A DNA stretch of 55,494 nt from Candidatus Brennerbacteria bacterium (GTDB taxonomy: Bacteria; Patescibacteriota; Minisyncoccia; UBA6257; GWB1-50-10). How positions within the stretch are numbered: position 1 is the stretch's first letter; the number at the start of each line of letters is the position of its first letter. The notes under the pieces are model-generated. The model searched no databases, had not been told where the DNA came from, and worked only from the letters and a program-made list of their open reading frames with translations. The stretch covers positions 1-55,494 of the forward strand of contig JAZDNP010000005.1 in NCBI GenBank assembly GCA_043799565.1. Direction: 5' to 3'. Both the position numbers and the translations under genes were made by a program. Below are positions 41,593-55,494 of this stretch, one piece after another.

Positions 41593-44191
41593 TGCCTTTC
41601 ACCATACTGTCCGCAAGTGCGTCCACGATAGTTTTCTCAATGAGACGTTTCACGGGACGCGCGCCGTAGTCAGGGTCAAATCCGTGCGTGACGAGATAAC
41701 GGCGCACCTCCGGTTTCACAGAAAGCGCGAGTCCTTTGTGTTTGAGTCGGTCCGCAAGCCGCGCAAGTTGGATATCCACGATGTGCTCCACTTCCTTCGG
41801 GGCAAGCGCGTTGAAGATGATGACCTCGTCCAAACGGTTTAAAAATTCCGGCTTGAACGTATCTTTGAGAGCCTCCCATACCTTATCACGAAACTGATCT
41901 TCTTTGATGTGAAGCTCCTCTTCGTTCGCCGCCGCAAAGCCGACTCCAGACATTTCGCGGAAGTATTCGCTCCCCACATTTGAGGTAAGGATGATGATGG
42001 CGTTCTTGAAATTCACATGCTTCCCCTTCCCGTCCGTGAGGCGCCCGTTGTCCAACATTTGGAGAAGGATATTGAAAACCTCTGGATGCGCCTTTTCTAT
42101 CTCATCAAAAAGGATGAGTGAGTAGGGGCGATGCCGCACGAGCTCGGTCAACTGTCCCCCCTCTTCGTACCCCACATAGCCCGGCGGGCTTCCGATAAGA
42201 CGAGAAACCGAATGGCGCTCCATATACTCAGACATATCAATGCGGATAAGGGCTTTTTCGTCGTTGAACATGAATTCCGCGAGCGTTCGCGCAAGTTCCG
42301 TTTTCCCCACACCTGTGGGCCCGAGGAACATAAATGACCCTGCGGGACGGTCTTCGTCCGCGAGTCCCGCACGCGAGCGTCTTAAAGCCCGCGCAACCGC
42401 GGAGACCGCTTCGCTTTGGCCTACCACACGCCCCGCAAGTACTTCCTCAATGCGCGAAAGTTTTTTGAGCTCCGACTCCAACATCCTTGAGGTGGGGATG
42501 CCCGTCCAACGGGCCACCACGGTTGCGATATCTTCCTTTTCCACCGTTTCCCGTATGAAATGCAGCGCGTGTGTCCCATTCACGCCTGCCCGTCCGCGAG
42601 GCGGGGGGATCTTTGATGCGGACGCGTAACGCTTTTCAAACGCACGATATTGCTTCTCCGCCTCAGGAAGTTCGCCGTAACGAATCTGCGCCACACGTTC
42701 CAGCTCTCCTTCCCGTTCCGCACGCTCCGCGGCACGTTTCAGATCTTCTATTTTTTTCCGCGAGGCATGGAGATTTTCAAATACCAGTTTTTCCGTGTGC
42801 CAATCGGCGGAGAGCGCTTCGTGCCGTTCTTTGAACTTCGCGATTTCCTTTATAAGCGTTTTCTTCCGCGCCGATTTTATCTCTTCCTTTTCCAACGCCG
42901 CACGTTCTATTTCGAGCCGCGTAAGTTCTTTCCGCACCTTCGCGAGTTCCGCAGGCACGCTGTCGGATTCCAACCTCCGCGCCGCCGCGGCTTCGTCAAT
43001 AAGGTCCACCGCTTTGTCGGGAAGAAAACGGTCGGTGATGTAGCGCGCGGAAAGTTCCACCGCCGCCACAATCGCTTCGTCAGTAATGCGAAGCCCGTGA
43101 TGCGTTTCGTATTTCTCTTTCAAACCGCGAAGGATGGAGACGGAGTCCTCGGTGGTCGGCTCCTCCACTATGACGGGCTGGAACCTCCGCTCAAGCGCAG
43201 GGTCCTTCTCGATGTGACGCTGATATTCTTTCTGTGTCGTGGCTCCTATCGCATGCAATTCACCACGCGCAAGTGCGGGCTTCAAAAGATTTGCGGCATC
43301 AACCGCACCTTCCGCCGCCCCCGCTCCCACAATCATGTGAATTTCGTCTATGAAGAGGATTATGCGCCCCTGCGCATTCTGCAGCTCTTTCAAGAATGCC
43401 TTCAACCGGTCCTCAAACTCGCCGCGAAACTTGGTGCCGGCAATGAGCGAGCCGATGTCCATCATCACAATTTCTTTCTCTTTCAGCGATTCTGGGACGT
43501 TCCCAGACACGATCATCTGCGCCAAACCTTCAACAATGGCGGTCTTCCCTACCCCCGGCTCACCGATGAGAATCGGGTTATTTTTGGTACGGCGCGAGAG
43601 GATTTGCATGACGCGCTCAAGCTCATTCTCACGTCCGATGACCGGATCTAATTTTCCCTCCTTCGCTTTATCGGTGAGATTCACCGAATATTTATCCAAA
43701 ACCTGGAATTTTGACTCCGGCATCTCGTCTGTCACACGCACGGTACCGCGAAGTTCCGCGAGCGTACGAAAAAGCGTATCGCGCCGCGCACCCGCGCGCG
43801 TAAGAAGCTCGGAGGCGCCGCCCGGCACGTCCAAAAGCGCAAGCACCAGGTGCTCGCATGAAATAAAGTCGTCCTTCTGCCGCTTGGCCGCTTCCGCCGC
43901 ACGGTCCAACACCCTCATAAGTTCGGTGGAAAGATAAAGCTGGCCCACGGTGCCGTGCGCCGCAACGATCTTCGGAAGTGCCGCGAGTTTTGCCTCCAGC
44001 TCCGTTTCCAGCATATTCACGTCCACCTGTCCCCGTGAAAGGAGTGGGCGGGCGAGTGTGGATTCGTCCTCAAGAAGTGCAGAGAGAAGATGGAGTCCTT
44101 TCAGTTCCCCGTGGTTCAACTGCGCAACGAGTTCCTGCGCCGTTTGGAGTGCCTCCTGCGCTTTTATCGTGAAGCGATGGAAGTTCTGCAT
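41525..44191 (-). CDS. clpB: ATP-dependent chaperone ClpB
   Basis: Clp-N domain, two AAA+ modules ([16 protein letters not shown]), coiled-coil M domain and [13 protein letters not shown]. Confidence 0.95.
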
Positions 44192-44225
44192 AGGTATGAA
44201 CGTATCCTACACCTTTTTGGGGGCA

Positions 44226-44252
44226 TTAGCAACCGAACTAATCGGGTGCTAG
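44226..44252. promoter_or_regulatory. CIRCE (HrcA operator) upstream of clpB
   Basis: TTAGCAACC-N9-GGGTGCTAG against consensus TTAGCACTC-N9-GAGTGCTAA, 34 bp before the clpB ATG. Confidence 0.85.
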
Positions 44253-44258
44253 TTGTGG

Positions 44259-45629
44259 TTATTCCTTCGGGCGCTCGCCCAAGGTCACGGAAAGTGTGAG
44301 TGCGGTCTCACCCCTCTCTATCGCGAGTGTTACCGTATCCCCCGCGCCATACTTTTGTATCACTACACCGAGTGGATTTTCTTCATTCAACGCTTCGCCG
44401 TTCATGGAGACAATAATGTCGTCCGCAAGAATACCTGAAATCGCGGCGGGAGAGTCCGGAATAACGCCGGGTCCGTCTTTGACACCACGCACCAAAGCGC
44501 CTTCGCTCGTCATTTCGTAGCGAACACCGAGGTATGGCGCCATGATGGCTCCTGTCTTCTTCACCGACTCTATCGCCCGCTTTGCGCGGTTCACCGGAAT
44601 CGCGAATCCGATATTCTCCGCGCCCGATGCGACCGCCACGTTAATACCCACTACTTCTCCCTTAAGGTTCAAGAGCGGCCCTCCCGAATTTCCCGGGTTG
44701 ATCGCCGCATCTGTTTGGATAACACCTTGGATAACCTCGATGCCAAATCCTTCGCCAGACGCAGTGATATTTCTCGCGAGGCCGGAGATAACGCCTACCG
44801 ACACGGTGTTCTGAAATTCGCCGAGCGAATTTCCGATTGCGATCGCGGTCTGGCCGAGCTTTAACGAGTCAGAGTTTCCGAGGCGTGCAGGCGTGAGCCC
44901 ACTCTTTTCAATTTTGAGAACCGCGAGGTCTTGCAAGGGATCGCGCGCGATTACCTTCGCGTCATATTTTTTGCCATCGTTCGTGAACACCGTGTATGCC
45001 GCCTTCGTGTCCGCCACTACATGTTTATTCGTCACGATAAGCCCGTCTGCTGAAACGATGAACCCTGAACCCCCTCCTACCTCGCGTCGTTCGGTGCCCC
45101 GTTCACATTGGGTATAAAAACCGCCAAACCCGCCACCGAAAATGTCACGGAACTCGTAGGGAAGCTCACCGAACGGGTCGTAAGGACATTGCTCAACGAT
45201 AGGCACGTCCTTTGAAATGACGATGGAAACCACGCTAGGGCTCGCGGTTTCCACCGCGTTCGTAACCGCCTCTTCATAATCAATGACGGGTTTGTAGAGC
45301 GGAACGCTCGGCGCTGGCGGAAATGATAAGGACTCTGTGGATGTCGGCGATGGTGCAACCGGCTTCAGAATCCCAAAAAAGGTTTTTAAATCGTCAAAAA
45401 AGTTCGCGGATGCGGACAAAGGCGCCATGGCACCTCCCACAACGCCCCCGATAATTCCCGCGACCACAATAAGCGAAAGAATCCTCTTACCGGCGCGACC
45501 CGAGGGGTCGCGGATGAATTGTGCGCACGGCGGGCGCTCCTTACCGGCATAACCGCCATGGTGCCGCCCACAAAAAAATTCTCGGGCGCGCGTAAAAATC
45601 AATGGGCGGCCGGTTTTATCGAATCTCAT
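44259..45629 (-). CDS. htrA: HtrA/DegP serine protease with PDZ domain; the N-terminus carries an in-frame 129-bp insertion
   Basis: TNKHV, DLAVL and QTDAAINPGNSGGP catalytic motifs, with a C-terminal PDZ. Confidence 0.92.
   Translation of the reverse strand: MRFDKTGRPLIFTRAREFFCGRHHGGYAGKERPPCAQFIRDPSGRAGKRILSLIVVAGIIGGVVGGAMAPLSASANFFDDLKTFFGILKPVAPSPTSTESLSFPPAPSVPLYKPVIDYEEAVTNAVETASPSVVSIVISKDVPIVEQCPYDPFGELPYEFRDIFGGGFGGFYTQCERGTERREVGGGSGFIVSADGLIVTNKHVVADTKAAYTVFTNDGKKYDAKVIARDPLQDLAVLKIEKSGLTPARLGNSDSLKLGQTAIAIGNSLGEFQNTVSVGVISGLARNITASGEGFGIEVIQGVIQTDAAINPGNSGGPLLNLKGEVVGINVAVASGAENIGFAIPVNRAKRAIESVKKTGAIMAPYLGVRYEMTSEGALVRGVKDGPGVIPDSPAAISGILADDIIVSMNGEALNEENPLGVVIQKYGAGDTVTLAIERGETALTLSVTLGERPKE
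45490..45615 (-). mobile_element. Structured short element, copy A (126 bp, flanked by TAA direct repeats)
   Basis: Homologous to 54619-54791. Minus-strand ends AACCGGCCGCCC...GCGCCGG. TTA at 45487-89 and 45616-18. Confidence 0.6.
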
Positions 45630-46383
45630 ACCGAAGCGTGACCGTTACCCGCACATCCTGCGACCCTGGTTCAATGGATGGGACCGATTTTACCGCATCT
45701 CCCGCACCACCCATGCCATACGCACGCTCATACATTGGTACCGGATATGCCAATCCTCCCTCATCTATAGAGAGTAGGCGCCCAATAGTAAACCCCGCTT
45801 CGTCTGCAATAAGTTCCGCTTTTGCCTTCGCTTTTTCGATGGCTTCCGCGCGTGCTTCCGCTTGCACCTCGGTCTGGTCGTCAATGGTGAACGTGAGCGA
45901 CGATACGGAGTTCGCACCGTTCGTAACCACGCCGCCCAAAATCGCACCCGCTTTCGTGAAATCGCGTACCTTCACCGATACGGTTTGGCGCACGGTATAT
46001 CCCACGATGCGCGACGGCGGACATGCCCCCATTTCGCATCCGTAGTATTGGTATCGCGGTTCTACCGAGTACCCTTCCGTCTTCACGTCCTTCGCGTCCA
46101 CACCGTTCTCCTTCACGTATGCAATGACCTTGTTCGTGCTCTCCGTGTTCGCAGTTTGAAGCGCGCCGAGATCCAGCCCTCCTTCCGTAATGACGCTCGC
46201 AGTGAATGCCGCAACGTCCGGCACTGCCACCACTTTCGCATCTGCGGTCACCGAAAAGCTCCGGAATGACGATGGTTCAATGGACTGCGAATACGTCCGC
46301 ACGTACGACACCGCCGCATACGATACCGCAAGAATACCTACTATCACCGCTCCCCACACATAATTCTTAAATTTTTCTGTCAT
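45616..46383 (-). CDS. SIMPL (DUF541) domain protein
   Basis: N-terminal TM, V.A...V.AVPD.A, Y.V.P.Y, AR.EAIEKAKAKA and IEPGSQDV.V.V...Y. Confidence 0.9.
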   Translation of the reverse strand: MTEKFKNYVWGAVIVGILAVSYAAVSYVRTYSQSIEPSSFRSFSVTADAKVVAVPDVAAFTASVITEGGLDLGALQTANTESTNKVIAYVKENGVDAKDVKTEGYSVEPRYQYYGCEMGACPPSRIVGYTVRQTVSVKVRDFTKAGAILGGVVTNGANSVSSLTFTIDDQTEVQAEARAEAIEKAKAKAELIADEAGFTIGRLLSIDEGGLAYPVPMYERAYGMGGAGDAVKSVPSIEPGSQDVRVTVTLRYEIR

Positions 46384-46416
46384 AGATTTATTTTACTTTT
46401 TGACCTTTAGCATATA

Positions 46417-47639
46417 TTACATTTTTTTCTCAAAAAGGTAACGGCATACCCCCGCCACGCTTCGCGCGGCTCCCTTTGCTCCCGCACGCGTCACTCGGCG
46501 CCCGAAGCTGAAGCGGATGGTTCGCCGAATGCCTTCGTCCTTAACGCCTATCGCCCGGAGTACGTGAGACAGCATGAGTGCGCGAGCGCTGCATGCCGCA
46601 CCGGGGCTCGCCGCAATCCCCTTTCTATCAAACAGCACGAGTAGGTCTTCCGACGAGATTCTGGGTGGAAACAAAATATTTGCGATATGGGGCGCCCGAG
46701 CCGAACCTTTCGGGCCGTTCTCTTCCACGCCGGGGATTGCTTTCTTCAACGCTTCAACGAACGCATTCCGTACACTCCTTGCGTAGTCCGCATTCTTTTT
46801 CCGCTCGCGCTCGGCATACGCGGCCGCGGCCGCGAACCCCACGATTGCGGGGACATTCTCGGTGCCCGCGCGAATGCCAAATTCCTGGCCTCCGCCCGTA
46901 GTGAGCGGATGAAGCGTGCGTATTGCACCCGCAAGCGCTCCCGCACCCTTTGGTCCATAGATTTTCTGCGAAGAAAGCGTTACGAGGTCCACCCCGAGTG
47001 CGCGCATATCGCACGGGTAGTAGAGAAACGCTTGTGCGGCATCGGTATGAAAAACCGGGTACGGCGTATTGGCTCTCTGCGCTCTCACGGCTTTTGCAAT
47101 CTCGGCTATCGGCTGAACCGTTCCTATCTCGTTATTCACGTACATCACGGACACGAGTGCGGTGCGCTCATTAAGCTCTTTTTTGATTTTTTGACATCCA
47201 CCACTCCCCGCGTGTCTACGGGGATTATAATAAGGTCCGCCTCTCCCGCACGTTCCATATCACGTGCAGTTTCCAACACCGAATCGTGCTCTACCGCCGA
47301 AATAATGATACGGGGAATAAAGGTCCGAGCGTTTGCTCCTCGGGAATATCCCGCAGGAGGAAAACTATTCTGGTTTCCGAGAGCAAACGCTCGGACTACA
47401 CCCCGAAGTGCTAAATTATTCGCCTCCGTCGCCGAAGCGGTAAATACCACATCGCGAAATTCAACCCCGGTGAGCCGCGCGATCTCCGCGCGTGCGCGAT
47501 CAATCGCCGAAAGCGCCTTGGCACCGAAGGCATGGAGCGAGCCGGGATTCCCGAATTTCTCGCCGAAATACGGTCGCATCACGCGTAAGACGCGAGGGTC
47601 CACCGGCGTCGCCGCGGCATGGTCAAGATATAAGGACAT
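46417..47639 (-). pseudogene. iscS: Cysteine desulfurase (IscS/NifS), split by a frameshift at about 47178-47192
   Basis: 5' half has YLDHAAATP, GNPGSLH and FTASATEANNL. 3' half has VMYVNNEIG, HTDAAQ, SSQKIYGPKG, RAGTEN and GAAC. Adding one A in an A6 run joins the halves. Confidence 0.85.
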
Positions 47640-47643
47640 GCCG

Positions 47644-48132
47644 CTAGAGGTCGCGATGTTTCCCGTGCCGTTCTTCCGCAAGCGCACGTTTTAAATCTAT
47701 CTTGCCGAGAATCGCAAGAAGTACGGTGAGCGCGGTGGCCGCGATGGCCGCAAACCAAAGAAGCCCAAGGCCGGAGAGCACGCCTAATGCCGCTACAAAC
47801 CAAACGGTGGCCGCCGTGGTCACGCTCCGTACGTGGACTCCCTGTTTCACAATGATGCCGGCTCCCAAAAATCCGATTCCGACCACGACGTTCCCGATAA
47901 GTGAAAGGAAGCCGCTGTTCCGCGCAATGATTTCGTCCAAATGTTCCGGCGAGCTCGCAAGGAGGTACGGGAGCATAAGTGCCGCAACGGTGAAGAGCGC
48001 CGCACCCGCCGCAACGATGATATCGGTCCTGACTCCCGCTTCCTTCCCCGCCACTTCGCGCCCGAATCCCACAATGGCGCCGAGTACCACCGCAACCGCG
48101 AGACGGATGAGCATTTCTTCCAACGTAAGCAT
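47644..48132 (-). CDS. MgtC/SapB family membrane protein
   Basis: GFGRE..GKEAGVRT, VVVGIGFLGAGII and TTAATVW. Confidence 0.92.
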   Translation of the reverse strand: MLTLEEMLIRLAVAVVLGAIVGFGREVAGKEAGVRTDIIVAAGAALFTVAALMLPYLLASSPEHLDEIIARNSGFLSLIGNVVVGIGFLGAGIIVKQGVHVRSVTTAATVWFVAALGVLSGLGLLWFAAIAATALTVLLAILGKIDLKRALAEERHGKHRDL

Positions 48133-48151
48133 GAAAATATTATAAACGAAA

Positions 48152-48169
48152 ACGCCCCATAAGGGGCGT
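48152..48169 (-). terminator. Terminator-like hairpin
   Basis: ACGCCCC/GGGGCGT stem followed by TTTCGTTT on the minus strand. Confidence 0.65.
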
Positions 48170-48188
48170 CTCCGCGAGATACCGGGAG

Positions 48189-48443
48189 TTAAAGCTGGTC
48201 CAGCTCAGCGTTGATGTCTTGGAGTTCTGACTCAAGATTGCCGAGGTCAATGCTCTCAATCTGGGCGTCAATCGCCGACGTTGTGTCTTCCACGCCAATC
48301 TCGGGCGCGGGCGCCAGCGCCGCCGGTCCTTGCCAAAAGATAAAGATAGCCGCGAGTATCACGATAACCACGAGCACTGCCCACATGAGCCACGACTTCC
48401 TCTTCTTTTCCTCCGATATCATTACTGGATTTTGTCCGTCCAT
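48189..48443 (-). CDS. Small single-TM protein
   Basis: Basic patch, one TM helix and an acidic amphipathic C-terminus. Confidence 0.75.
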   Translation of the reverse strand: MDGQNPVMISEEKKRKSWLMWAVLVVIVILAAIFIFWQGPAALAPAPEIGVEDTTSAIDAQIESIDLGNLESELQDINAELDQL

Positions 48444-48473
48444 ATTTTTTAGTAGTTGGAAATTTGTCCGACC

Positions 48474-49370
48474 TTATTCGTTGCCTGTAGCGGTGGAAGT
48501 TGCGGTAGAAGTTGCGGTAGAAGTTGCGTTTTCATCCTCGTCGTCGTCATTACGGTCCGCATCGTCCACGCGGGAAATCTGCGCGAGCGCTACGGCGGCC
48601 TGTCGCACCGCATCATGTGCCGCACGCACCGTCTCGCGGACTGTATTTAGGTCATTCTTGAGCGCATCGCGTGCTACTGCCACATCTGACCGGAGCGTAG
48701 AACTGGAGGTCACCGTAATGTTGTAGCTCTTCCCCGCCTGCGCTTGCACCGCAGTACGGCTTGCCGCAATTGCGGCCTCTACACTTGTGATAGCGGTCCG
48801 AACCGAAGTGACGCTCAAACCCGCCGCTTCCGCCTTATCGGTACGGCTCTTCACGTTCGCAAGCACTTTTTCGATTTTCTCCAACACATCAAGATAGTGA
48901 CTCGTGAGTCGGGTATTGAGCTCGTTCACCTTATCGTACACACGCGTCACGGCCTCCTTTTTCCGCTCGTCCTTCAAAATCTCCAAGCGCTGTTTCAATT
49001 CTTCTCGCTTCGTTTCCATAACCTGCTTTGCTTCCTCGCGGCGCGCTTCCATCTGCTGTTTTGCTTCCTCGCGCACCTGCTCCATCTGCTTCTTCTCCTC
49101 TTCACGGCGCTCTTTGAGCGCTTCAATATTCTCGCGGGAAAGCTTGATAGCATTCTGAGCCTCAACCCGCATGCCTTCACGAATCTGCTCCGTCTCTTGT
49201 TTTACGCGCTCACGAACCTGTTCTGCTTCCTTCTTCAAGCTTTCCTGCAACGTCTTCACCTCTTCCCTCATTCTTTCCTGCTCCCGAACATTCGCCGACG
49301 TATCCTGCGCTCCAACGAAGAGCGGCACGATAAGCGCAAGCGAAATCATGAATACCGTAAGTTTTCTCAT
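48474..49370 (-). CDS. Secreted coiled-coil protein with 11-residue repeats and an ATST-repeat tail
   Basis: Signal peptide, EQVREEAKQQM/EARREEAKQVM/ETKREELKQRL repeats and C-terminal ATSTATSTATST. Confidence 0.8.
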   Translation of the reverse strand: MRKLTVFMISLALIVPLFVGAQDTSANVREQERMREEVKTLQESLKKEAEQVRERVKQETEQIREGMRVEAQNAIKLSRENIEALKERREEEKKQMEQVREEAKQQMEARREEAKQVMETKREELKQRLEILKDERKKEAVTRVYDKVNELNTRLTSHYLDVLEKIEKVLANVKSRTDKAEAAGLSVTSVRTAITSVEAAIAASRTAVQAQAGKSYNITVTSSSTLRSDVAVARDALKNDLNTVRETVRAAHDAVRQAAVALAQISRVDDADRNDDDEDENATSTATSTATSTATGNE

Positions 49371-49568
49371 TGATTATTTTCTTTTTTATCCTGCTCGACT
49401 TTTGGAAGTTGGGGACAGTATACCATTCACCTCCAACGAGGGGAAATGGGAGGCAAAAACACGTATTACAACTGTTTTTGCTGGGTCCTATAGTCGAGCG
49501 CGTTAGAACTTGTGTGGAGCAATAAAAAGCCCCCGGCGGTGGCTCAAAGCGAGCGAGGCTCTCTCAGG

Positions 49569-49784
49569 TTAAGAGAAGGTCCCTTGGTGCTCTAAAGCAT
49601 CCTTAACTTTTTCTAAGATTGCTTGATTGATTTTTTCCTCGTCCTTCATATCTAGTTCGTGTCCCATAAAAAGCTTCAGCCGCGCTGCTTCTTCAGCGAG
49701 CCCACGAACTTTTTCGGCATATTCCTTGTCTAGTTCTGTTGCCTCTTTTTCTCCAGTCGGATCTGACTTCTCAAATAGTTCCAT
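49569..49784 (-). CDS. Small hypothetical charged protein
   Basis: MELFEKSD... 71 aa with protein-like composition. The ATG at 49784 avoids overlap with tRNA-His. Confidence 0.5.
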   Translation of the reverse strand: MELFEKSDPTGEKEATELDKEYAEKVRGLAEEAARLKLFMGHELDMKDEEKINQAILEKVKDALEHQGTFS

Positions 49785-49821
49785 AGTTTCAGCATACTGC
49801 CGCAAGAAATAAAGGTAAATG

Positions 49822-49893
49822 GGTGCCCAACGGGGTTCGAACCCGTGATAAGAGTTCCACAAACTCTTGTGTTACCGCTACACTATGGGCACC
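49822..49893 (-). tRNA. tRNA-His (GTG)
   Basis: G-1 plus GTGCCCA/TGGGCAC acceptor stem, AAGAG-TT-GTG-AA-type anticodon arm and GGTTCGAAC T loop. Confidence 0.93.
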
Positions 49894-49981
49894 ATCCGCT
49901 CTAACCACGGGCATAATAACTCACTTTTTGGCGATTTGGAAGTATTGGGGTCCGGAAAGTGTGTTATTATCCCTTTAATCA

Positions 49982-50689
49982 ATGGGGATTTTAGACAACC
50001 TTGGCGCGCTTGTTATCCAATACCCACAGTGGAGCCACTGGATTATTGCCGTCGCGATTCTCTTCCAGGGCGAGGTAGTGGTCCTGGTCTCGGTCTTTTT
50101 GGTCGTCTCGGGCAGTCTCACGTGGGGAGGATTCATCATCCCCGCGGTTGCGTCCCTCATTGTCGGCGACACGTTCCTCTTCGTTCTCGGCCGCATGACG
50201 CGCAATACCCGCTTCGGGTGGAAGTTGTACATAAGAATGAAGCACAGCCGCCGCGCACAGTTCTATCTGTACTATGTGAAAGAGAACATCAATAAATTAA
50301 TGATTATTTCCAAATTCCTCGTTGCCGCAAACGTGTTCGCGGTGCTCGCCGTGAGCTGGTCCAAGGTGAGCTTTGGGAAATTCCTCAAGTCGCAATTTAC
50401 CAGCGTCATGCTATGGTTCTTCTCCGCTACGGCCGTGGCATATTTCTTCGCCTCCGGTTTCAGCTACCTGCGTTCCGAAAAAGTGTTCCGCCAGATCGAG
50501 ATCGGCATTGCGGTCGTCATGGTTCTCATGTTCGTCGGTGAACATTTCTTAAAGAAGGCGCTCCATAAATCGTTCCAAGCGGGCAGTAGGGTCCGGGTTG
50601 AAGATGGCGAGAAACGCGAAATGGGCCCTGTTCAAAATGGCAGCGCGGAAACTTCACGGTTTATGGATGAGCAAGATAGCGAAACGTAG
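49982..50689 (+). CDS. DedA/VTT family membrane protein
   Basis: GE.V...S.FL, GDTFLF.LGR and I.SKF. Confidence 0.75.
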   Translation: MGILDNLGALVIQYPQWSHWIIAVAILFQGEVVVLVSVFLVVSGSLTWGGFIIPAVASLIVGDTFLFVLGRMTRNTRFGWKLYIRMKHSRRAQFYLYYVKENINKLMIISKFLVAANVFAVLAVSWSKVSFGKFLKSQFTSVMLWFFSATAVAYFFASGFSYLRSEKVFRQIEIGIAVVMVLMFVGEHFLKKALHKSFQAGSRVRVEDGEKREMGPVQNGSAETSRFMDEQDSET

Positions 50690-50732
50690 ATCGTAGCGCC
50701 GAACACGCTATGCGATTTCGAACGGGATGAAA

Positions 50733-50760
50733 ATGCCTGGCGAGTGAACCCGCCAGGCAT
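50733..50760. terminator. Bidirectional terminator hairpin between convergent genes
   Basis: Perfect 10-bp stem ATGCCTGGCG/CGCCAGGCAT. Confidence 0.7.
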
Positions 50761-50761
50761 G

Positions 50762-51610
50762 TTAGTTCGTAGCAATGCGTGCCGCGTACGAGAGCACGGC
50801 ATCGGCATATCCTCCTCGATTATAGGCGTAGAGCGCACGCCGTTGGTCGCGGTGCCTCGGCGACCATCCGTGAGCGCGGAGATAGTTTGAGGCGCTTGCG
50901 ACCGCATCGGGAAGCGCGAAGAGATCAACAACATCATCTCCGTTACCGTCTACCCCGTAAGCAAGGTACGAAGTGGGCCGAAACTGCGGGAATCCAAACG
51001 CGCCACGCCATGATCCGCGAAGTGCAAGAAATAGATCGATATTTCCACCCTGCATGATCTGGAGCAAGGCGGAAAGTTCGCGGAGTTCAGGATTGCGCTG
51101 AGTTGAATTTTCCGCAAGTCGGGCAGCGGTATAAAGCGTATTCGCCACCACATATTCGCCGGGCGCTTCACCAAAATCCGACTCTGTGCGAAGCAACGCT
51201 GCAATCACTCGTGATGGCACTCCGAATGGTTGCGCCACGCTGTCCAAAAACTCCCGGTATTGCGAAAGAAATTGCTTCCCGCGCGCAACAGAAGAATCTG
51301 TGAAAAGCCACGCGTACGGCGCTCGACGCTTCGCGGGGTTACTCCTCGCACGACGCGCTTCCGCGAATCGCGCCACCACATCGTCGTCAATTCCAAAACG
51401 AACGTCATTGAAAAGCGTGACGACCGTAAGTGAATCGCTCACCTTCGTAAGGAATGAGACGAACGCGGTATCTTCAGGTGCCCATACGCGCACCGCGAGA
51501 TGTGAATTCCCCGCTTCGATCTTCTTTCGCTTTACATCGTGCTTCGTAGAATAGAACGCGCCGGCGAACGCGACGAGAAACATCAATGTGTGCACAAGAT
51601 TCCGTCTCAT
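50762..51610 (-). CDS. mltB: Lytic murein transglycosylase B (SLT_2 family)
   Basis: GVP..VIAA....ESDFG, GSW.GAFG.PQF.PTSY..YGVDGNGD, DAVAS.SNYL..HGW and AYN. SD AGGAGG. Confidence 0.88.
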   Translation of the reverse strand: MRRNLVHTLMFLVAFAGAFYSTKHDVKRKKIEAGNSHLAVRVWAPEDTAFVSFLTKVSDSLTVVTLFNDVRFGIDDDVVARFAEARRARSNPAKRRAPYAWLFTDSSVARGKQFLSQYREFLDSVAQPFGVPSRVIAALLRTESDFGEAPGEYVVANTLYTAARLAENSTQRNPELRELSALLQIMQGGNIDLFLALRGSWRGAFGFPQFRPTSYLAYGVDGNGDDVVDLFALPDAVASASNYLRAHGWSPRHRDQRRALYAYNRGGYADAVLSYAARIATN

Positions 51611-51723
51611 GTATCCTCCTAATTGATGACTGTGAAATAATCCTCTTTATATGATAGGCGCTGGGACGATAAAGAAGAAGCGCCCCACAGATGGTGTAGG
51701 GCGCCGGTACGCAAGAGAGTAGC

Positions 51724-52107
51724 TCAACTTCCGAGGCATGCGAGTTTTTTTAACACAGTGTGGAGGTGACTTTTCTCGCATTCAATATCGCACCCACCCC
51801 CTCGAAGCAACCGGTTCGCGGCCGGCTCCGTGGAGATCGCGATTGCGAGCCCCTTCCCCTTCAGAAATCCGGATGCACTCACCTCTCTCATGAAATCAAG
51901 CGAGGAGAGTGCTCCTGGGATCTGACCGTCTACCGCAACAACATCGAGACGGCCTTTCAGCTCATAGAATATCGCGAGTCCGCTCGTGACGTTCAGTGCC
52001 GAGCGAAGGTCAATGGACTCCTCACATGACGCCCACGCGTGAAGCGCCTCCTGTAGGCTGACGTTGTCGTCAACTACAAGAACAAGAAGTTTTTTGTCGG
52101 TTTTCAC
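51724..52107 (-). CDS. Stand-alone response-regulator receiver domain
   Basis: VLVVDDN, VAVDGQIP, AIST and a late Lys (EK). GTG start. Confidence 0.7.
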   Translation of the reverse strand: MKTDKKLLVLVVDDNVSLQEALHAWASCEESIDLRSALNVTSGLAIFYELKGRLDVVAVDGQIPGALSSLDFMREVSASGFLKGKGLAIAISTEPAANRLLRGGGCDIECEKSHLHTVLKKLACLGS

Positions 52108-52317
52108 AGTTTTCTCCGATATGTTCTGTCTTCAAGTAAAGCACAAAATTATGTATTTGTCAAATATGCGACGAATTTACTTGCTCCTCTCCTCACTTCG
52201 CGATAAAGTTATAAACGTTCCTTTCGCTCATTACTTGCCGCGGTATTTGCGCTTCGCGCTCATTCCGTGGCATCGTAATTCGAGAATGAACGTGTGCATT
52301 CATTCTACTCATTACTT

Positions 52318-52389
52318 GCCGCGGTAGCTCAATGGTAGAGCATTTCCCTGAAGAGGAAAGGGTTGTCAGTTCGATTCTGACCCGCGGCA
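52318..52389 (+). tRNA. tRNA-Phe (GAA)
   Basis: GCCGCGG/CCGCGGC acceptor stem, TTTCC-CT-GAA-GA-GGAAA anticodon arm and GTTCGATTC. Confidence 0.95.
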
Positions 52390-52393
52390 CTAA

Positions 52394-52423
52394 AACAATC
52401 CCCGACTAAGGTCGGGGATTGTT
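52394..52423. terminator. Bidirectional terminator hairpin
   Basis: Perfect 13-bp stem AACAATCCCCGAC/GTCGGGGATTGTT. Confidence 0.8.
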
Positions 52424-52458
52424 CGCGCAAACAGTTTTTTGAACTGTTGTAGCACAAA

Positions 52459-53196
52459 TCATTCCGGCACCAATGTACCGACGAGGATAATGACCACTAT
52501 GCCGAATACGATCATGAAGAAATGCAGGAATTCTTTCGGTGCGGCGTGGTGGCGAATCTCCGGCATAAGGTCGGAGACCGCAATGTAGATGAAGGAGCCT
52601 GCGGCAAGCCCGAGGAAATAACCGAGGTAAGCGTCAAAGAACGGGAGGAAAAAATAAGCGAGAATCGCGCCCACAGGAGTCGCGAGCGCGGTCAATACGT
52701 TCAACCACCACACCTTCGCGCGCGAATACCCGGCGTGGAGGAGCGCCCCGAAATCCCCTATTTCCTGCGGAACCTCGTGGAAAAATACCGCCACGGTTGT
52801 CGCGATACCCACCGGCATGCTGATGAAAAAACTCGCGGCAATCGCAATACCGTCCAGAAAATTGTGCACCGCATCACCAAACAATATTGAGCTTGAAAAT
52901 GTGTGGTAATCGCACACCGCCCGGTCGTGGCAGTGGTACCACTTAAGGAATTTCTCGAAGAACAACATGATGAGGATTCCCACCACCACACTCCCATACG
53001 CCGCACCGGTGGGAAAAACCTCGTGCATCTCGGGAAGAAGGTCAAAGAATGCGGCTCCGAGAAGCGACCCCGCCGCAAAGCTCACGAGAAGGAGCGACAT
53101 CTTCCGCGCCCACGCTTCGCGCCACAAAAGAAGCGCGCCCCCCGCAAGGGCCGCAATGCTACCAATAATACTCGCTCCGAGAATGGTTAAAAACAT
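52459..53196 (-). CDS. ZIP family metal (zinc) transporter
   Basis: SFAAGSLLG.AF.DLLPE, HCHD, HNFLDG, HEVPQEIGD and GSFIYIA.SDLMPE. Start at ATG 53196. Confidence 0.93.
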   Translation of the reverse strand: MFLTILGASIIGSIAALAGGALLLWREAWARKMSLLLVSFAAGSLLGAAFFDLLPEMHEVFPTGAAYGSVVVGILIMLFFEKFLKWYHCHDRAVCDYHTFSSSILFGDAVHNFLDGIAIAASFFISMPVGIATTVAVFFHEVPQEIGDFGALLHAGYSRAKVWWLNVLTALATPVGAILAYFFLPFFDAYLGYFLGLAAGSFIYIAVSDLMPEIRHHAAPKEFLHFFMIVFGIVVIILVGTLVPE

Positions 53197-53269
53197 ATTT
53201 TTGTCCCCTCGGTACTTTCGGCCGAGCATCCGCGCTCGGAAATATGCTCTTCGCATATTTCCTTGCTTG

Positions 53270-53341
53270 TCCCCTCGGTAGGAATCGAACCTACATCAAG
53301 GCCTTAGAAGAGCCCTGCACTATCCATTGTGCTACGAGGGG
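53270..53341 (-). tRNA. tRNA-Arg (TCT)
   Basis: CCCCTCG/CGAGGGG acceptor stem, CT-TCT-AA loop and GGTTCGATTCC. Confidence 0.92.
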
Positions 53342-53544
53342 ATAACGAAACGATAGAATGCCCTAGGCATTATATCGTTGAGCGATACCCTTGTATGTGC
53401 TCATACGAGGGGCAAGGCCAGCATGATTCAAATTTGATAGTAAGTGAAAAAGTGCGTAAGGTAAACAGATACGGGCCGTAAGCAATAGCTTCCGTCCCGG
53501 GCACTCGGATAAAATGATTCTCTAAATCATTTTGTTCCTCGTTA

Positions 53545-53615
53545 CGGGCCGTAGTATACCGGCAGTACGCCTGCTTTGGGAGCAGGTAGACTGGGTTCGA
53601 TTCCCAGCGGCCCGA
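53545..53615 (+). tRNA. tRNA-Pro (TGG)
   Basis: CGGGCCG/CGGCCCG acceptor stem, CCTGC-TT-TGG-GA-GCAGG anticodon arm and GGTTCGATTCC. Confidence 0.95.
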
Positions 53616-53616
53616 C

Positions 53617-53763
53617 AAAATGATTTTGTTCCTTCGCGGGGAATCGAACGGGAAAGGGGTCGGGAAACCGCAAAGGAAAGGTTTCCCGTGCCGGAAGTAC
53701 TGAAACCGAAGGGTTTCAGAATGCGCGGGAACGCGCGCGTTGTTCGCTTCCCAGCGGCCCGAC
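53617..53763. repeat. Palindrome-rich segment ending in a duplicate of the tRNA-Pro 3' end
   Basis: 53742-53763 repeats 53595-53616 with 1 mismatch. An inverted T-arm copy lies at 53635-53649. Confidence 0.75.
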
Positions 53764-53880
53764 TGACAAACGAAGGTGAGGAAGTACTGAACACAGCGGC
53801 GCGAATGTACCCGACAATAAAGCAAAAAATTGATAGTTCGGCTTCGCTCACTATCAATCCTGAATATCTTTATTCAAGGA

Positions 53881-53908
53881 TTGACACGTTTGTCTCGTGG
53901 AGTATGGT
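53881..53908 (+). promoter_or_regulatory. Sigma70-like promoter upstream of the DksA/TraR-like gene
   Basis: TTGACA, 16 bp, TATGGT. Confidence 0.5.
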
Positions 53909-53959
53909 AAGTGAGGTTCCTCAAATCACTCATATCCCGCGGGAAGGAGGTAGATGCAT

Positions 53960-54013
53960 ATGACACAGCCGATACTAAGGTATGTGGGGTGTGTGGTTAT
54001 AAAGCGTGAATAG
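53960..54013 (+). CDS. Possible 17-aa leader peptide MTQPILRYVGCVVIKRE
   Basis: Perfect SD AAGGAGGT (53944-51) 8 nt before the ATG. Confidence 0.35.
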   Translation: MTQPILRYVGCVVIKRE

Positions 54014-54066
54014 CAACACAACTTGGTTAATTCACGATCCCACCACAACGCTTTTAGGGAGGTAGC

Positions 54067-54564
54067 ATGAAACAAGGATTATTAGTTCCTTCACGAGAAC
54101 CACGTATAGTACTGGTTCCCGAATCTTTCACGTTCTACCCCGTCACTTCGGCAGGTTTCCTTGAAGAGGACGCGCTCCGGTCATTCGAAGCGCAGCTCTC
54201 ACAAAAGGAAGCCGAACTTTTGGAGGACATGGGGCACCAGGAAAAAGCGCTACAGTCTACAATGGAGGGTTACGGCGACGAGGGCGACCGCAGCATTGCG
54301 GTTATCAAGGACGACGCAGCGGCAATCCTCGCCAGCATCAAGCACGAGCTCCCAAAGGTGAGCGAGGCGCTTACAAAGGTCCGCAACGACCTCAAGGGAC
54401 CTGGACGGAATCACTCGAGACCTCCGTACGGGAAATGCCTTGAGAAGGACTGCTCAAAGTTCATCGAGCGGGAGCGGTTAGATGCGACCCCAATCGCACC
54501 AACCTGCATCACCCACACGAACGGATGCGGCTGCGTGGGAAATGAAAGATCGCGCCGAAATTAG
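54067..54564 (+). CDS. DksA/TraR-like transcription factor
   Basis: Coiled coil with a DEGDRS tip and YGKC....C...I..ERLDA.P.A..CI.H zinc-finger region. SD GGGAGGT. Confidence 0.8.
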   Translation: MKQGLLVPSREPRIVLVPESFTFYPVTSAGFLEEDALRSFEAQLSQKEAELLEDMGHQEKALQSTMEGYGDEGDRSIAVIKDDAAAILASIKHELPKVSEALTKVRNDLKGPGRNHSRPPYGKCLEKDCSKFIERERLDATPIAPTCITHTNGCGCVGNERSRRN

Positions 54565-54585
54565 GCGCGACAAGTAGAAATGACG

Positions 54586-54617
54586 AGCGCGGGATTCAAC
54601 CCCCCGCGCTTTTTTTT
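54586..54617 (+). terminator. Intrinsic terminator
   Basis: AGCGCGGG/CCCGCGCT stem followed by a T run. Confidence 0.8.
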
Positions 54618-54618
54618 A

Positions 54619-54791
54619 TCGGCGCAGGTCGGGAAACCGCGGGCGTGAGCCCGCGGATGAACGACCGCGCTTGAACTAGTGCACCCGGCGGGGCGCACCT
54701 TGCCGACACAACCGCCACGGTGCCGCTCGCGGAAAACCCCACGCCTGCCGGCAGGCAGGCGTGAGCGTGGAGAATCGACGGGCGGCCGGTT
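54619..54791 (-). mobile_element. Structured short element, copy B (173 bp, flanked by TAA direct repeats)
   Basis: Homologous to 45490-45615. TTA at 54616-18 and 54792-94. Carries extra nested palindromes. Confidence 0.6.
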
Positions 54792-54794
54792 TTA

Positions 54795-55403
54795 TTACTC
54801 GGAAGCGTCGAATATGCCTATCGCCTCGCGGAATGCTTTATTCAAAGTGTTGATGGATACCACCTTTGTATTCACTTCATCGAGCGCCGCGGCCGCGGCT
54901 GCGCGATTGGCTTCAATATTGAAACGGATTGCCCGCTCCAGTGCATCCAAAAACGCATCAACTTTTTGTGTATAGACGATGAACTCAGAAACGAGCGAAA
55001 GCTCTATCGCCACAGCTTCCGAACCTTCGCGCTGCTTCGTAACCGATGAAATTCCGGGGAGCGACTTGGCGAGTGCCTGAAGATGCTGGGTTAATTCAAA
55101 TGCCTTCCCGTAGGCGGCCGCATTGGAGGCGCGCGCGTCGCTCATGAGCGTGAGCGCGCGGGGGGCATCTCCCCCGAGGTCGGAGAGATTCACCTCGGTC
55201 ATTTTTTCACTTGTGAGCGTGGCAAGGTCCACAATATGCTGGCTTACCGCCGCAGCTCCCTGGCGCGCCCGTACAAATTCTTGAGGAAGACGCGTAGCCG
55301 CCATTCCTGCACCTATCATATATATAAGAAGGCCGGCTCCTATAAGAAGGAGCGCTGCCCGCGCTATGGTTTTCGGCAATTTTAGCCGCTCAGTGAAGGC
55401 CAT
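54795..55403 (-). CDS. Hypothetical membrane-anchored helical protein
   Basis: N-terminal TM followed by amphipathic helices, 202 aa. Confidence 0.75.
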   Translation of the reverse strand: MAFTERLKLPKTIARAALLLIGAGLLIYMIGAGMAATRLPQEFVRARQGAAAVSQHIVDLATLTSEKMTEVNLSDLGGDAPRALTLMSDARASNAAAYGKAFELTQHLQALAKSLPGISSVTKQREGSEAVAIELSLVSEFIVYTQKVDAFLDALERAIRFNIEANRAAAAAALDEVNTKVVSINTLNKAFREAIGIFDASE

Positions 55404-55476
55404 TTGTTTTTACCCATCATATCCCACACTCGTTGACCCGCGCAAACGAACGAAGGTAGTATGATAACTGATGGAA

Positions 55477-55494
55477 GCGGGATTAGTTTAGTGG
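55477..55494 (+). tRNA. 5' end of a tRNA (probably Gly), truncated by the window edge
   Basis: GCGGGATTAGTTTAGTGG fits an acceptor strand plus D-arm start. TTGACC and TAGTAT/TATGAT lie upstream. The anticodon is not visible. Confidence 0.6.

Follow-up and report, generated by a model that had tools for sequence, protein, structure and literature searches.

Several described mobile elements and structured repeats offer a frame for the locus reported here. Insertion sequences of the IS200/IS605 group show a bias for the lagging-strand template, and transposons of the IS5 and PIF/Harbinger kind produce a 3-bp duplication that reads TAA or TNA. Rickettsia palindromic elements (RPEs) are structured repeats that are tolerated in frame within protein-coding genes. 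Folded nucleic acid is central to two other systems: the IS110 bridge RNA has a loop that pairs with the element's joined ends around a short core, and the 5′ and 3′ ends of retron msr/msd RNA pair with one another (a1/a2), with the cognate reverse transcriptase adjoining.

IS608 lacks terminal inverted repeats, carries hairpins near both ends with a guide 5′ of the hairpin that pairs with the cleavage region, and inserts in a strand- and orientation-specific manner 3′ of a short target, its right end closing in a similar short sequence (PMC3201880). Other work reports a 3-bp target duplication for PIF/Harbinger elements (PMC2213677), a resemblance of REP/BIME sequences to IS200/IS605 ends (PMC3333891) and, in a review, small mobile bacterial repeats that are both intergenic and intragenic (PMC2229807).

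The window analysed here, a 55,494-nt stretch of a 662-kb Candidatus Brennerbacteria genome (G000), was compared with the genomes of two other species of the same genus (G001 and G002). A first-pass annotation of the window had described two homologous, structured, TAA-flanked copies, one of them in frame in degP, and had proposed a non-autonomous mobile element or mobile structured RNA. Both copies belong to a family of small (approximately 95–175 nt), gene-less, strongly structured mobile DNA elements which, with somewhat better than even confidence for our explanation as a whole, we regard as previously undescribed. The literature searched contained no description of such a TAA- or stop-codon-associated non-autonomous repeat in bacteria, and on MITEs or transposable elements of CPR bacteria it yielded only an unrelated DGR paper.

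Copies A and B belong to a larger family

Both copies lie on the annotated strand and positions with TAA on each side (Table 1). Each begins, directly after the left TAA, with AACCGGCCGCCC, shares the common core and ends in GCGCCGR directly before the right TAA. In alignment A2 of the two copies 96 columns are identical, 27 differ by a transition and 12 by a transversion, so that the differences are indeed mostly transitions. Copy B lies 3 nt past the stop codon (54795-54797) of an ORF at 54795-55403, and a terminator-like hairpin follows directly after it.

Table 1. Features of copies A and B and of the neighbouring genes, in window coordinates. With their flanks included, copy A spans 45487-45618 and copy B 54616-54794.
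Feature	Position	Strand	Remark
degP, HtrA-type serine protease	44259-45629	minus	Trypsin_2 and PDZ domains
SIMPL gene	45616-46383	minus	PF04402; upstream of copy A
Copy A, core	45490-45615 (126 bp)	minus	within the 5′ coding region of degP, in frame; matched by model R1
Copy A, left flanking TAA	45616-45618	minus	SIMPL stop codon; within degP codons 4-5
Copy A, 5′ end AACCG	45611-45615	minus	forms helix 1 with the guide's first half
Copy A, variable hairpin P1b	45563-45610	minus	arms 45603-45610 and 45563-45570
Copy A, conserved unpaired bulge ACCATGG	45556-45562	minus	with CACC motif
Copy A, internal guide CGGTT-A-TGCCGG	45544-45555	minus	
Copy A, hairpin P3	45521-45539	minus	G+C-rich; CACC/CGCC in the loop
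Copy A, variable hairpin P4	45495-45511	minus	
Copy A, 3′ end GCCGG and right TAA (45487-45489)	45487-45493	minus	CCGGTA is the partner of the guide's second half
Copy B, core	54619-54791 (173 bp)	minus	54616-54794 with the two flanking TAAs
Copy B, P1b	54722-54786	minus	with a long insert
Copy B, guide	54703-54714	minus	
Copy B, P3	54679-54698	minus	
Copy B, P4	54622-54670	minus	with an inner hairpin

A first covariance model (R1), built from five copies, scored these five at 104–124 bits (123.2 bits for copy A and 112.3 bits for copy B) and picked up additional copies, which places the likeness of A and B beyond chance. The homology proposed in the first-pass annotation is thus real, but the number of copies is not two: a covariance model search of G000 found seven family members. 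The sister species G002 holds five full copies and one degenerate copy, and the same type of search found none in G001. At the level of the order a single diverged copy was present in another family; the genus itself holds 13 copies. Some copies are deleted or degenerate.

A cmscan of 44000-55494 (E ≤ 10) matched neither copy to Rfam, including its ribozyme, intron, sRNA and retron ncRNA families, in line with the earlier failure to recognise a known family. Distant-mode blastn gave no match in phage and plasmid collections. Two longer patterns found 0 and 4 loci in viral contigs, and all four were plain terminators. A scan with a 15-mer from the core returned at least 120 loci in genome contigs and at least 119 in metagenome contigs; among the 239 loci listed, nhmmer recognised one real copy (L088, identical with copy G2_c of G002), the others listed being chance matches. 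The sole match of a class-level search, in genome G245, was a terminator-like false positive. Among sequencing runs one DNA run (word share 0.08) and no RNA run came up; over 44000-55494 its reads reached neither copy and gave no joints.

Insertions are independent, oriented and placed 3′ of TAA or TAG

Comparison of G000, G001 and G002 revealed no insertion site common to two genomes, and every alignable orthologous site is empty, with one stop codon or TAR (TAA/TAG) trinucleotide. Four of the five full G002 copies (G2_a, G2_b, G2_c and G2_e) correspond to clearly empty sites in G000, which carry one TAA or TGA where alignable, while G2_d lies in an intergenic stretch that aligns poorly with G000. 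The G000 copies C15a, C1 (95 nt), C15b, C6B (copy B) and C13 have empty counterparts in G001, in G002 or in both, copy B in G001; for the flanks of C4 there was no match. Two sister genomes have thus each received the element at numerous sites independently, which bears out the earlier proposal of a non-autonomous mobile element that targets TAA and extends the target to TAG.

In every copy the folded strand is found 3′ of TAA, TAG or, rarely, TGA and in a single orientation: all 13 genus copies have TAA or TAG as their left flank, and none of the 13 is bounded by TTA or CTA at both ends. Identical trinucleotides flank 10/14 copies, including two TAG/TAG pairs, a count equally compatible with a 3-bp target duplication and with a target plus an element-borne TAR; in G2_b a left TAA is combined with a right TAG. 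Most copies are in sense orientation and occupy a gene's stop codon (8–9 of 13 at stop codons, where 14% would be expected from tolerated TAR sites), and several precede an intrinsic terminator. The host genes are unrelated and include FtsZ-like and RNase Y-like C-termini by our own reading, SIMPL and pilins.

Within this small sample the top strand falls on the leading (G-rich) strand in 8/13 copies, without a lagging-template bias, a distribution that does not favour a single-strand element of the IS200/IS605 type.

Each end pairs with half of one internal guide

Each end of the element pairs with the adjacent half of a single internal 12-nt guide. The first 5 nt of the guide pair with the 5′ end, and its last 6 nt with the 3′ end together with the TA of the right TAA, which makes the guide complementary to a joined 3′-end/TA(R)/5′-end, that is, to a circle junction. 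In alignments of 12 copies that had been fitted to the model beforehand, 90.6% of the cells of the whole fold are paired and 16/33 pairs change on both sides, compared to 5.1 ± 1.5 in shuffles (0/500 reach 16) and 0–4 in slid controls. The two end-guide helices are paired in 98.3% and 89.3% of cells, with 3/5 and 4/7 covarying pairs, respectively. At the 5′ end AACCG/CGGTT changes to AGTCG/CGACT and AAATG/CATTT, and at the 3′ end TGCCGG/CCGGTA changes to TACTGG/CCAGTA and TGCCAG/CTGGTA. The G·U to A·C count of 29 to 18 favours the TAR-bearing strand as the folded strand. Hairpins P1b and P4 lie 5–9 nt from the element ends and both covary, and the CACC motif occurs unpaired 28 times versus 8.5 ± 2.7 in shuffles. 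The partner of the 5′-end helix is situated 3′ of the first hairpin, an arrangement that sits poorly with an IS608-like view.

The first-pass fold, in which the ends pair together (ACCGGC/GCCGGT) around internal stems, is not supported: the end-to-end helix is paired in 74.2% of cells, has 0/6 covarying pairs and is broken at two positions in 7/11 copies. No terminal inverted repeat is conserved among the copies.

Copy A is an in-frame insert in degP

The degP ATG at 45629 overlaps the 3′ end of the preceding ORF, which matches PF04402 (SIMPL) and has the first TAA of copy A as its stop codon. The degP ORF is open through the insert (129 nt, 43 codons, no stops), so that residues 6–48 are element-encoded. 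The SIMPL-degP junction is empty in both G002 and G001 with a single TAA at the site; in the sister species G002 the start of degP precedes the SIMPL stop by 11 nt, and the DegP of one sister species begins MKFGKREVLTLIVIAGITGG, overlapping that stop, which is the insert-free N-terminus that had been predicted. Copy A thus hit a SIMPL stop codon lying within the overlapping first codons of degP and, since the sister-species junction is empty with an overlapping start, separated the first five codons of degP from the remainder.

Three of the 13 copies are intragenic: copy A (C6A), C4 in a membrane protein gene and G2_e in a prepilin leader, where it is antisense to its host gene. All three have a length that is a multiple of 3 and an open frame, and they add in-frame inserts of 34–43 codons, in each case in an N-terminal leader; of the ten non-intragenic copies three have a length divisible by 3, and roughly one frame in three is open. 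Because 3/3 intragenic copies are in frame and open, with one of them antisense, translation through the insert is favoured over its removal at the RNA level, which the first-pass annotation had entertained. Translation of DegP would then still start at the original ATG and place 43 additional residues, many of them basic, ahead of the membrane anchor. An in-frame GTG at 45465-45467, located 14 nt past AAGAGGA, could serve as an alternative degP start.

Candidates for the moving enzyme

The window had been noted to lack a transposase, and this extends to the genomes: profiles for Y1 transposase (PF01797), TnpB (PF07282), DDE_Tnp_1 (PF01609) and IS110 (PF01548) gave no match in G000, G001 or G002, the Y1 control giving matches in 6/14 reference genomes, and rve (PF00665) was found only in the copy-free G001. 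Two reverse transcriptase genes occur in G000, of which one lies 380 nt downstream of C13, and G001 also has the enzyme; G002 contains neither a reverse transcriptase (PF00078) nor a serine recombinase. A tyrosine recombinase is uninformative as the mover because it occurs once per genome in all three.

We also collected ORFs that are present in G000 and G002 and absent from G001 and scanned the 20 largest for protein families. These include a Y-family polymerase, an Nramp transporter, an amidase, NlpC/P60, other housekeeping proteins and several without a family. The sole nuclease among the 20 is a 163-aa HNH endonuclease (G000 C8:14801-15289), which lies at non-orthologous sites in G000 and G002 and is, in a comparison of three genomes, a weak lead for the enzyme.

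Relation to described systems

The element is best read as nearest to IS200/IS605-type elements, yet not a member. As in IS200/IS605 elements and PATEs, subterminal hairpins are present at both ends without terminal inverted repeats; as in IS200/IS605, the element inserts in one orientation 3′ of a short target and its right end closes with a similar short sequence, the 3′ end and its TA are paired with a guide 5′ of P3 (4/7 pairs covary), and a circle junction in which the right and left ends abut is implied. Unlike IS608, the present element pairs its left end with sequence 3′ of the hairpin. It also differs from IS200/IS605 in using one continuous guide for both ends, in forming Watson–Crick helices of 5–7 bp with its own ends rather than 4-nt guide/cleavage-site contacts, in a target of only TAR, and in the absence of Y1 transposase and TnpB from the host genomes. 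Replication-strand bias, which in IS200/IS605 favours the lagging template, is not clear here (6/7 copies leading in G000 and 2/6 in G002).

Like the RPEs described in Rickettsia, the element is a structured repeat found in frame within coding genes, but only 3/13 copies are intragenic, all in N-terminal leaders, and the host lineage is CPR. It shares with RAYT-associated REP/BIME sequences the form of a short structured extragenic repeat often just past genes; however, no RAYT or Y1 gene was found, and a multi-helix fold with defined ends and target replaces the single palindrome. The IS110 bridge RNA is similar in pairing with its own joined ends, whereas here there is no IS110 recombinase, no identified second target loop and no gene carried. 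The end-to-end pairing of retrons is unsupported, 1/13 copies is near a reverse transcriptase, and G002 has none.

Discussion

Our modest preference is for a new, non-autonomous element whose moving form is a folded single strand, which is served by an enzyme in trans and is read through in degP. Top-strand DNA would be the likeliest form of that strand. By analogy with the guide/cleavage-site pairing of IS200/IS605 "peel and paste" elements, the guide would hold both ends together for cleavage and joining, its first two bases would read the TA of the target, and the moving enzyme would act in trans. A possible though doubtful variant is a self-guided single-strand element without its own transposase, whose splint, complementary to its circle junction, presents the ends and the target TAR either to an enzyme of the host or to a catalytic fold of its own. 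In that case the sense strand of transcribed genes would be the target, and stop codons would therefore be hit far above the tolerance expectation.

An ordinary MITE, derived by deletion from a DDE transposon of the IS5 or PIF/Harbinger kind whose partner transposase was lost or lies outside the assemblies, appears unlikely. Such MITEs are likewise small and non-coding, with the same trinucleotide on both sides and one at empty sites, and the low copy number and the identical flanks of 10/14 copies, TAG/TAG pairs among them, fit this account. Against it, the ends covary with the internal guide instead of forming a conserved terminal inverted repeat, all 13 genus copies are oriented alike relative to the non-palindromic TAR, and DDE partners are missing, PF01609 from all three genomes and PF00665 from all except the copy-free one.

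A host-serving 3′-UTR RNA module kept by selection (an mRNA stabiliser, processing site or termination brake), with degP as an accident, would suit the 8–9 copies directly after stop codons, several before intrinsic terminators, and the conserved unpaired CACC motifs; structured repeats near stop codons in E. coli reportedly can affect translation of the upstream gene. We consider it quite improbable: there are no orthologous filled sites in two genomes, G001 is copy-free, the host genes are unrelated, deleted or degenerate copies exist, and the spread of copies is left unexplained. Least probable by our estimate, and very unlikely, is an RNA-level mobile or self-excising element in which the guide aligns the ends in the transcript, excision and circularisation restore the degP message and spread proceeds via an RNA copy, for despite the sense-strand fold, the co-transcription of most copies between stop codon and terminator, a guide complementary to the circle junction and the G000 reverse transcriptase near C13, splicing does not demand that 3/3 intragenic copies be in frame and open, one is antisense to its host gene, G002 has six copies without PF00078 while G001 has a reverse transcriptase without copies, and Rfam gave no ribozyme or intron match.

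For annotation, the in-frame inserts in degP, a membrane protein gene and a prepilin gene matter because they would otherwise be taken for odd N-termini or wrong starts. To our knowledge, small ultra-reduced genomes such as this one are generally regarded as almost devoid of transposable elements; in the present case an element without genes has been active in two sister lineages, neither of whose genomes has a recognisable transposase. Its design, with a single internal guide for both ends and a trinucleotide target that makes stop codons landing sites, offers a testable model of nucleic-acid-guided end recognition beyond the known IS200/IS605 and IS110 systems.

Copies and distribution

Copies A and B align end to end with 96 identical columns, 27 transitions and 12 transversions, and with insertions within two hairpins; the first-pass annotation of two homologous TAA-flanked copies at these positions is therefore correct. 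Copy A, 126 nt between its two TAAs, starts AACCGGCC and finishes GCGCCGG. Copy B has the same TAA flanks and lies 3 nt past the stop of an ORF, with a terminator-like hairpin after it. The stretch that separates the two copies holds four tRNA genes.

A BLAST search of copy A against its own genome (G000; 662 kb, 15 contigs, 96% complete) placed pieces of the element on four further contigs. Reading these out gave five full copies and one internally deleted copy (C15b), all six of which read TAR-AACCG...CCGR-TAR (TAR, TAA or TAG) on one strand. A covariance model of the five full copies (R1) identified one more copy in G000, the seventh and more diverged, on contig C4, and five copies in G002, which is one of the two other species of the genus and the sole carrier among 60 relatives searched; nhmmer added a sixth, degenerate G002 copy. 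This gives seven copies in G000 and five plus one degenerate in G002; these numbers are small, and the genomes were binned from metagenomes. In G001, a third species of the genus, neither covariance model nor nhmmer found a copy. A second model built from 11 copies (R2) matched two of 96 genomes of the family, again G000 and G002, and, among 150 others from the order, only G223, where one real, diverged copy lies between ftsK and a rodZ-like gene; no real copy appeared in 150 class-level genomes. Where more than 40 genomes were searched, the filters were stricter and a limited number of candidates was scored, and absence here means not found in those searched. One R2 match (27.5 bits, genome G245) was judged false, being a bidirectional terminator hairpin that starts with AAAACCGGCCGC like the element's 5' end. 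Rfam gave no match at E <= 10, in agreement with the earlier view that this is not a recognised family, and phage and plasmid collections gave none.

Features of the element copies, their hosts and candidate genes (window coordinates unless a contig or locus is named)
Feature	Location	Strand	Remark
SIMPL gene (PF04402)	45616-46383	-	ORF; 3' end ...GAGATTCGA-TAA
degP, longest ORF (Trypsin_2 + PDZ)	44259-45629	-	ATG 11 nt ahead of SIMPL stop
SIMPL stop TAA	45616-45618	-	left flank of copy A
Copy A core	45490-45615	-	
Second TAA	45487-45489	-	right flank of copy A
Candidate degP GTG start	45465-45467		behind AAGAGGA
Copy B core	54619-54791	-	
ORF next to copy B	54795-55403		
tRNA gene	49822-49892	-	
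tRNA gene	52318-52389	+	
tRNA gene	53270-53341	-	
tRNA gene	53545-53615	+	
C15b copy, 65 nt	G000 C15:118381-118445	-	3' of stop of second HtrA/PDZ-like gene
Host ORF of C4 copy	L019:69-1628 (G000 C4)	-	520 codons
Host gene of G2_e copy	L018:929-1702 (G002 C3)		prepilin
Reverse transcriptase (PF00078)	G000 C13:35863-36984	-	374 codons
HNH endonuclease gene	G000 C8:14801-15289; G002 C4:103439-103849		adjoins tRNA genes; non-orthologous sites
Y-family DNA polymerase (IMS) gene	G000 C3:14884-16068		
False R2 match	L357:1501-1594 (G245)		

Empty sites and mobility

Flanks of the copies were compared against the complete G001 and G002 sequences. Orthologues of SIMPL-degP without the element, which the first-pass annotation had proposed to look for, exist in both species: the G002 junction reads ...TTCGG-TAA-AAGAGAGG... 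with one TAA, and the G001 site is likewise empty. G002 degP has an overlapping ATG start and the N-terminus MKFGKREVLTLIVIAGITGG, while that of G000 runs MRFDK, 43 residues, then RILSLIVVAGIIGG. For C15a, C1, C15b, copy B and C13, the corresponding site in G001 and/or G002 is also empty and has a single stop codon; the C4 flanks had no counterpart found in either genome. Four of the five full G002 copies have clearly empty sites in G000, that of G2_a (...GATA-TAA-AACCCC...) being exactly the filled site less the element and one TAA, and the fifth (G2_d) lies in a spacer of poor alignability. No insertion was common to two of the three genomes in this comparison. These single-stop empty sites support the proposed mobile element landing on TAA. 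Some cross-species copy pairs share 84-89% core identity, many within-genome pairs only 62-83%, and orthologous DNA flanking the copies only about 70-80%. Absence of common insertions, together with cross-species copies more alike than their flanks, implies that the family has been active in both lineages since they diverged, or has passed from one to the other.

Insertion target and orientation of the copies

All 13 copies of the genus have TAA or TAG as left flank, and in 10 of 14 copies (G223 included) the right flank is identical to the left, the unequal pairs (left/right) being TAA/TAG, TAA/TTA, TAA/TGA and TGA/TAA. Eight copies occupy the stop codons of long ORFs, and a ninth occupies the second TAA where two stops stand in tandem; because TAR is non-palindromic and the element always faces it the same way, stop-codon copies must be sense, which accounts for their orientation. 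A crude gene call puts the TAA/TAG stop codons of G000 at 485 and its intergenic TAR sites, both strands counted, at 2952; were all those sites equally tolerated, 14% of insertions would be expected on stops, against 8-9 of 13 observed (binomial tail 1e-4 to 1e-5). Part of this excess could reflect selection against promoter insertions, a longer target or preferential insertion into the non-template strand where DNA is transcribed. In six of seven G000 copies and two of six G002 copies the top strand lies in leading-strand sequence; across these 13 there is no clear replication-strand bias.

Copies within genes

Three copies lie in N-terminal coding parts: copy A, the C4 copy and G2_e. A membrane-protein ORF (LVIVD repeat) continues in frame through the C4 copy; its 7 codons ahead of the element overlap the end of a pilin-like gene. 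G2_e is antisense in a prepilin leader peptide, where its 40-codon insert duplicates the cleavage motif G/FT (slash, cut); with the motif on both sides of the insert, the leader would be cut off, insert included, leaving the mature pilin unchanged. All three copies have a length divisible by 3 and leave the host frame open. Since only three of the other ten have such a length and roughly one frame in three through a copy is open (14/39 sense, 12/39 antisense), the probability of this by chance is of the order of 0.002, and the pattern is what selection on translated inserts would be expected to give. Of the two possibilities raised initially, in-frame tolerance is thus favored over removal of the element from RNA to restore the host message, which would not require in-frame, open inserts and which, through a sense-strand fold, could not act on the antisense G2_e. 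In degP the added residues are arginine-rich and precede a hydrophobic anchor, a tolerated place under the positive-inside rule. A candidate alternative start, an in-frame GTG, would drop the charged N-terminus present in all four degP orthologues.

Fold of the element

Five helices emerge from RNAalifold and pair counts. AACCG at the 5' end pairs with internal CGGTT, enclosing a hairpin that varies between copies and a 7-nt bulge that is conserved (ACCRTGG), while internal TRYCGR, one base further on, pairs with the 3' end YCGR-TA, enclosing two more hairpins and taking in the first two bases of the right TAR. Both ends pair with neighbouring parts of a 12-nt internal guide, whose sequence is thus complementary to the junction made when the 3' end meets the 5' end. 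Across 12 copies, pairing holds in 90.6% of cells and 16 of 33 pairs have changed on both sides, compared with 5.1 +/- 1.5 in shuffles (0/500 reach the observed value) and 0-4 in slid registers; the pair-count alignments were fitted to the model and hence lean in its favour. Clear compensatory changes in the two end-guide helices can nevertheless be read directly in the raw sequences of the C4 copy (AGTCG/CGACT and TACTGG/CCAGTA) and the G223 copy (AAATG/CATTT and TGCCAG/CTGGTA). Covariation supports a fold, but not the end-to-end helix first proposed, which pairs 74.2% of cells and shows no covariation. G.U pairs outnumber A.C pairs (29 vs 18), and therefore the TAR-bearing strand is the folded one; one G.U of the 3'-end helix is kept in 8 of 12 copies. 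CACC occupies three unpaired places (the bulge, the loop of hairpin P3 and ahead of the right TAR) and occurs 28 times in 12 copies versus 8.5 +/- 2.7 in shuffles, homologous positions not being independent. The deletion joint of C15b falls at repeated GCACC, fusing the first CACC place to the third.

Candidate enzymes

No Y1 transposase, TnpB, DDE_Tnp_1 or IS110 gene was found in G000, G001 or G002. An rve gene is present only in G001, one tyrosine recombinase in each genome, large serine recombinases in G000 and G001 with none found in G002, and reverse transcriptases in G000 (two) and G001 (one) with none found in G002; none of these follows the distribution of the element, carried by G000 and G002 but not by G001. 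One G000 reverse transcriptase, 380 nt downstream of the C13 copy, has retron-like motifs YADD and VTG (read by eye). It is preceded by a promoter-like TTGACC-17-TACGCT, and the block of C13 copy and reverse transcriptase is missing whole from the orthologous G001 and G002 sites. A small free-standing HNH endonuclease is the sole nuclease among ORFs common to G000 and G002 and missing from G001, but is a weak lead because only three genomes were compared. Its G000 gene is within a ~1.3-kb insertion relative to G001 and G002. A Y-family DNA polymerase gene is likewise present in G000 and G002 and not found in G001. The enzyme may have been lost, or may be on an unassembled replicon, in a partner organism, or a housekeeping protein.

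Comparison with known elements

The closest parallel is IS608, described in PMC3201880 as having subterminal hairpins without inverted repeats, cleavage restricted to the top strand, a circle in which the two ends abut, insertion on the 3' side of a fixed tetranucleotide, and guide bases 5' of the hairpins that read the cleavage sites. Membership of the IS200/IS605 family fails, since neither its transposase nor its strand bias was found, and the element differs in having one continuous guide, whose helices with the two ends are 5-7 bp long. The flanking trinucleotides fit a DDE-type MITE that makes a 3-bp duplication; the lack of inverted repeats, the unvarying orientation and the covariation of a single-strand fold do not. 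Given the IS608 parallels and these misfits, we place the family with small non-autonomous elements, probably working most like a single-strand 'peel and paste' element.
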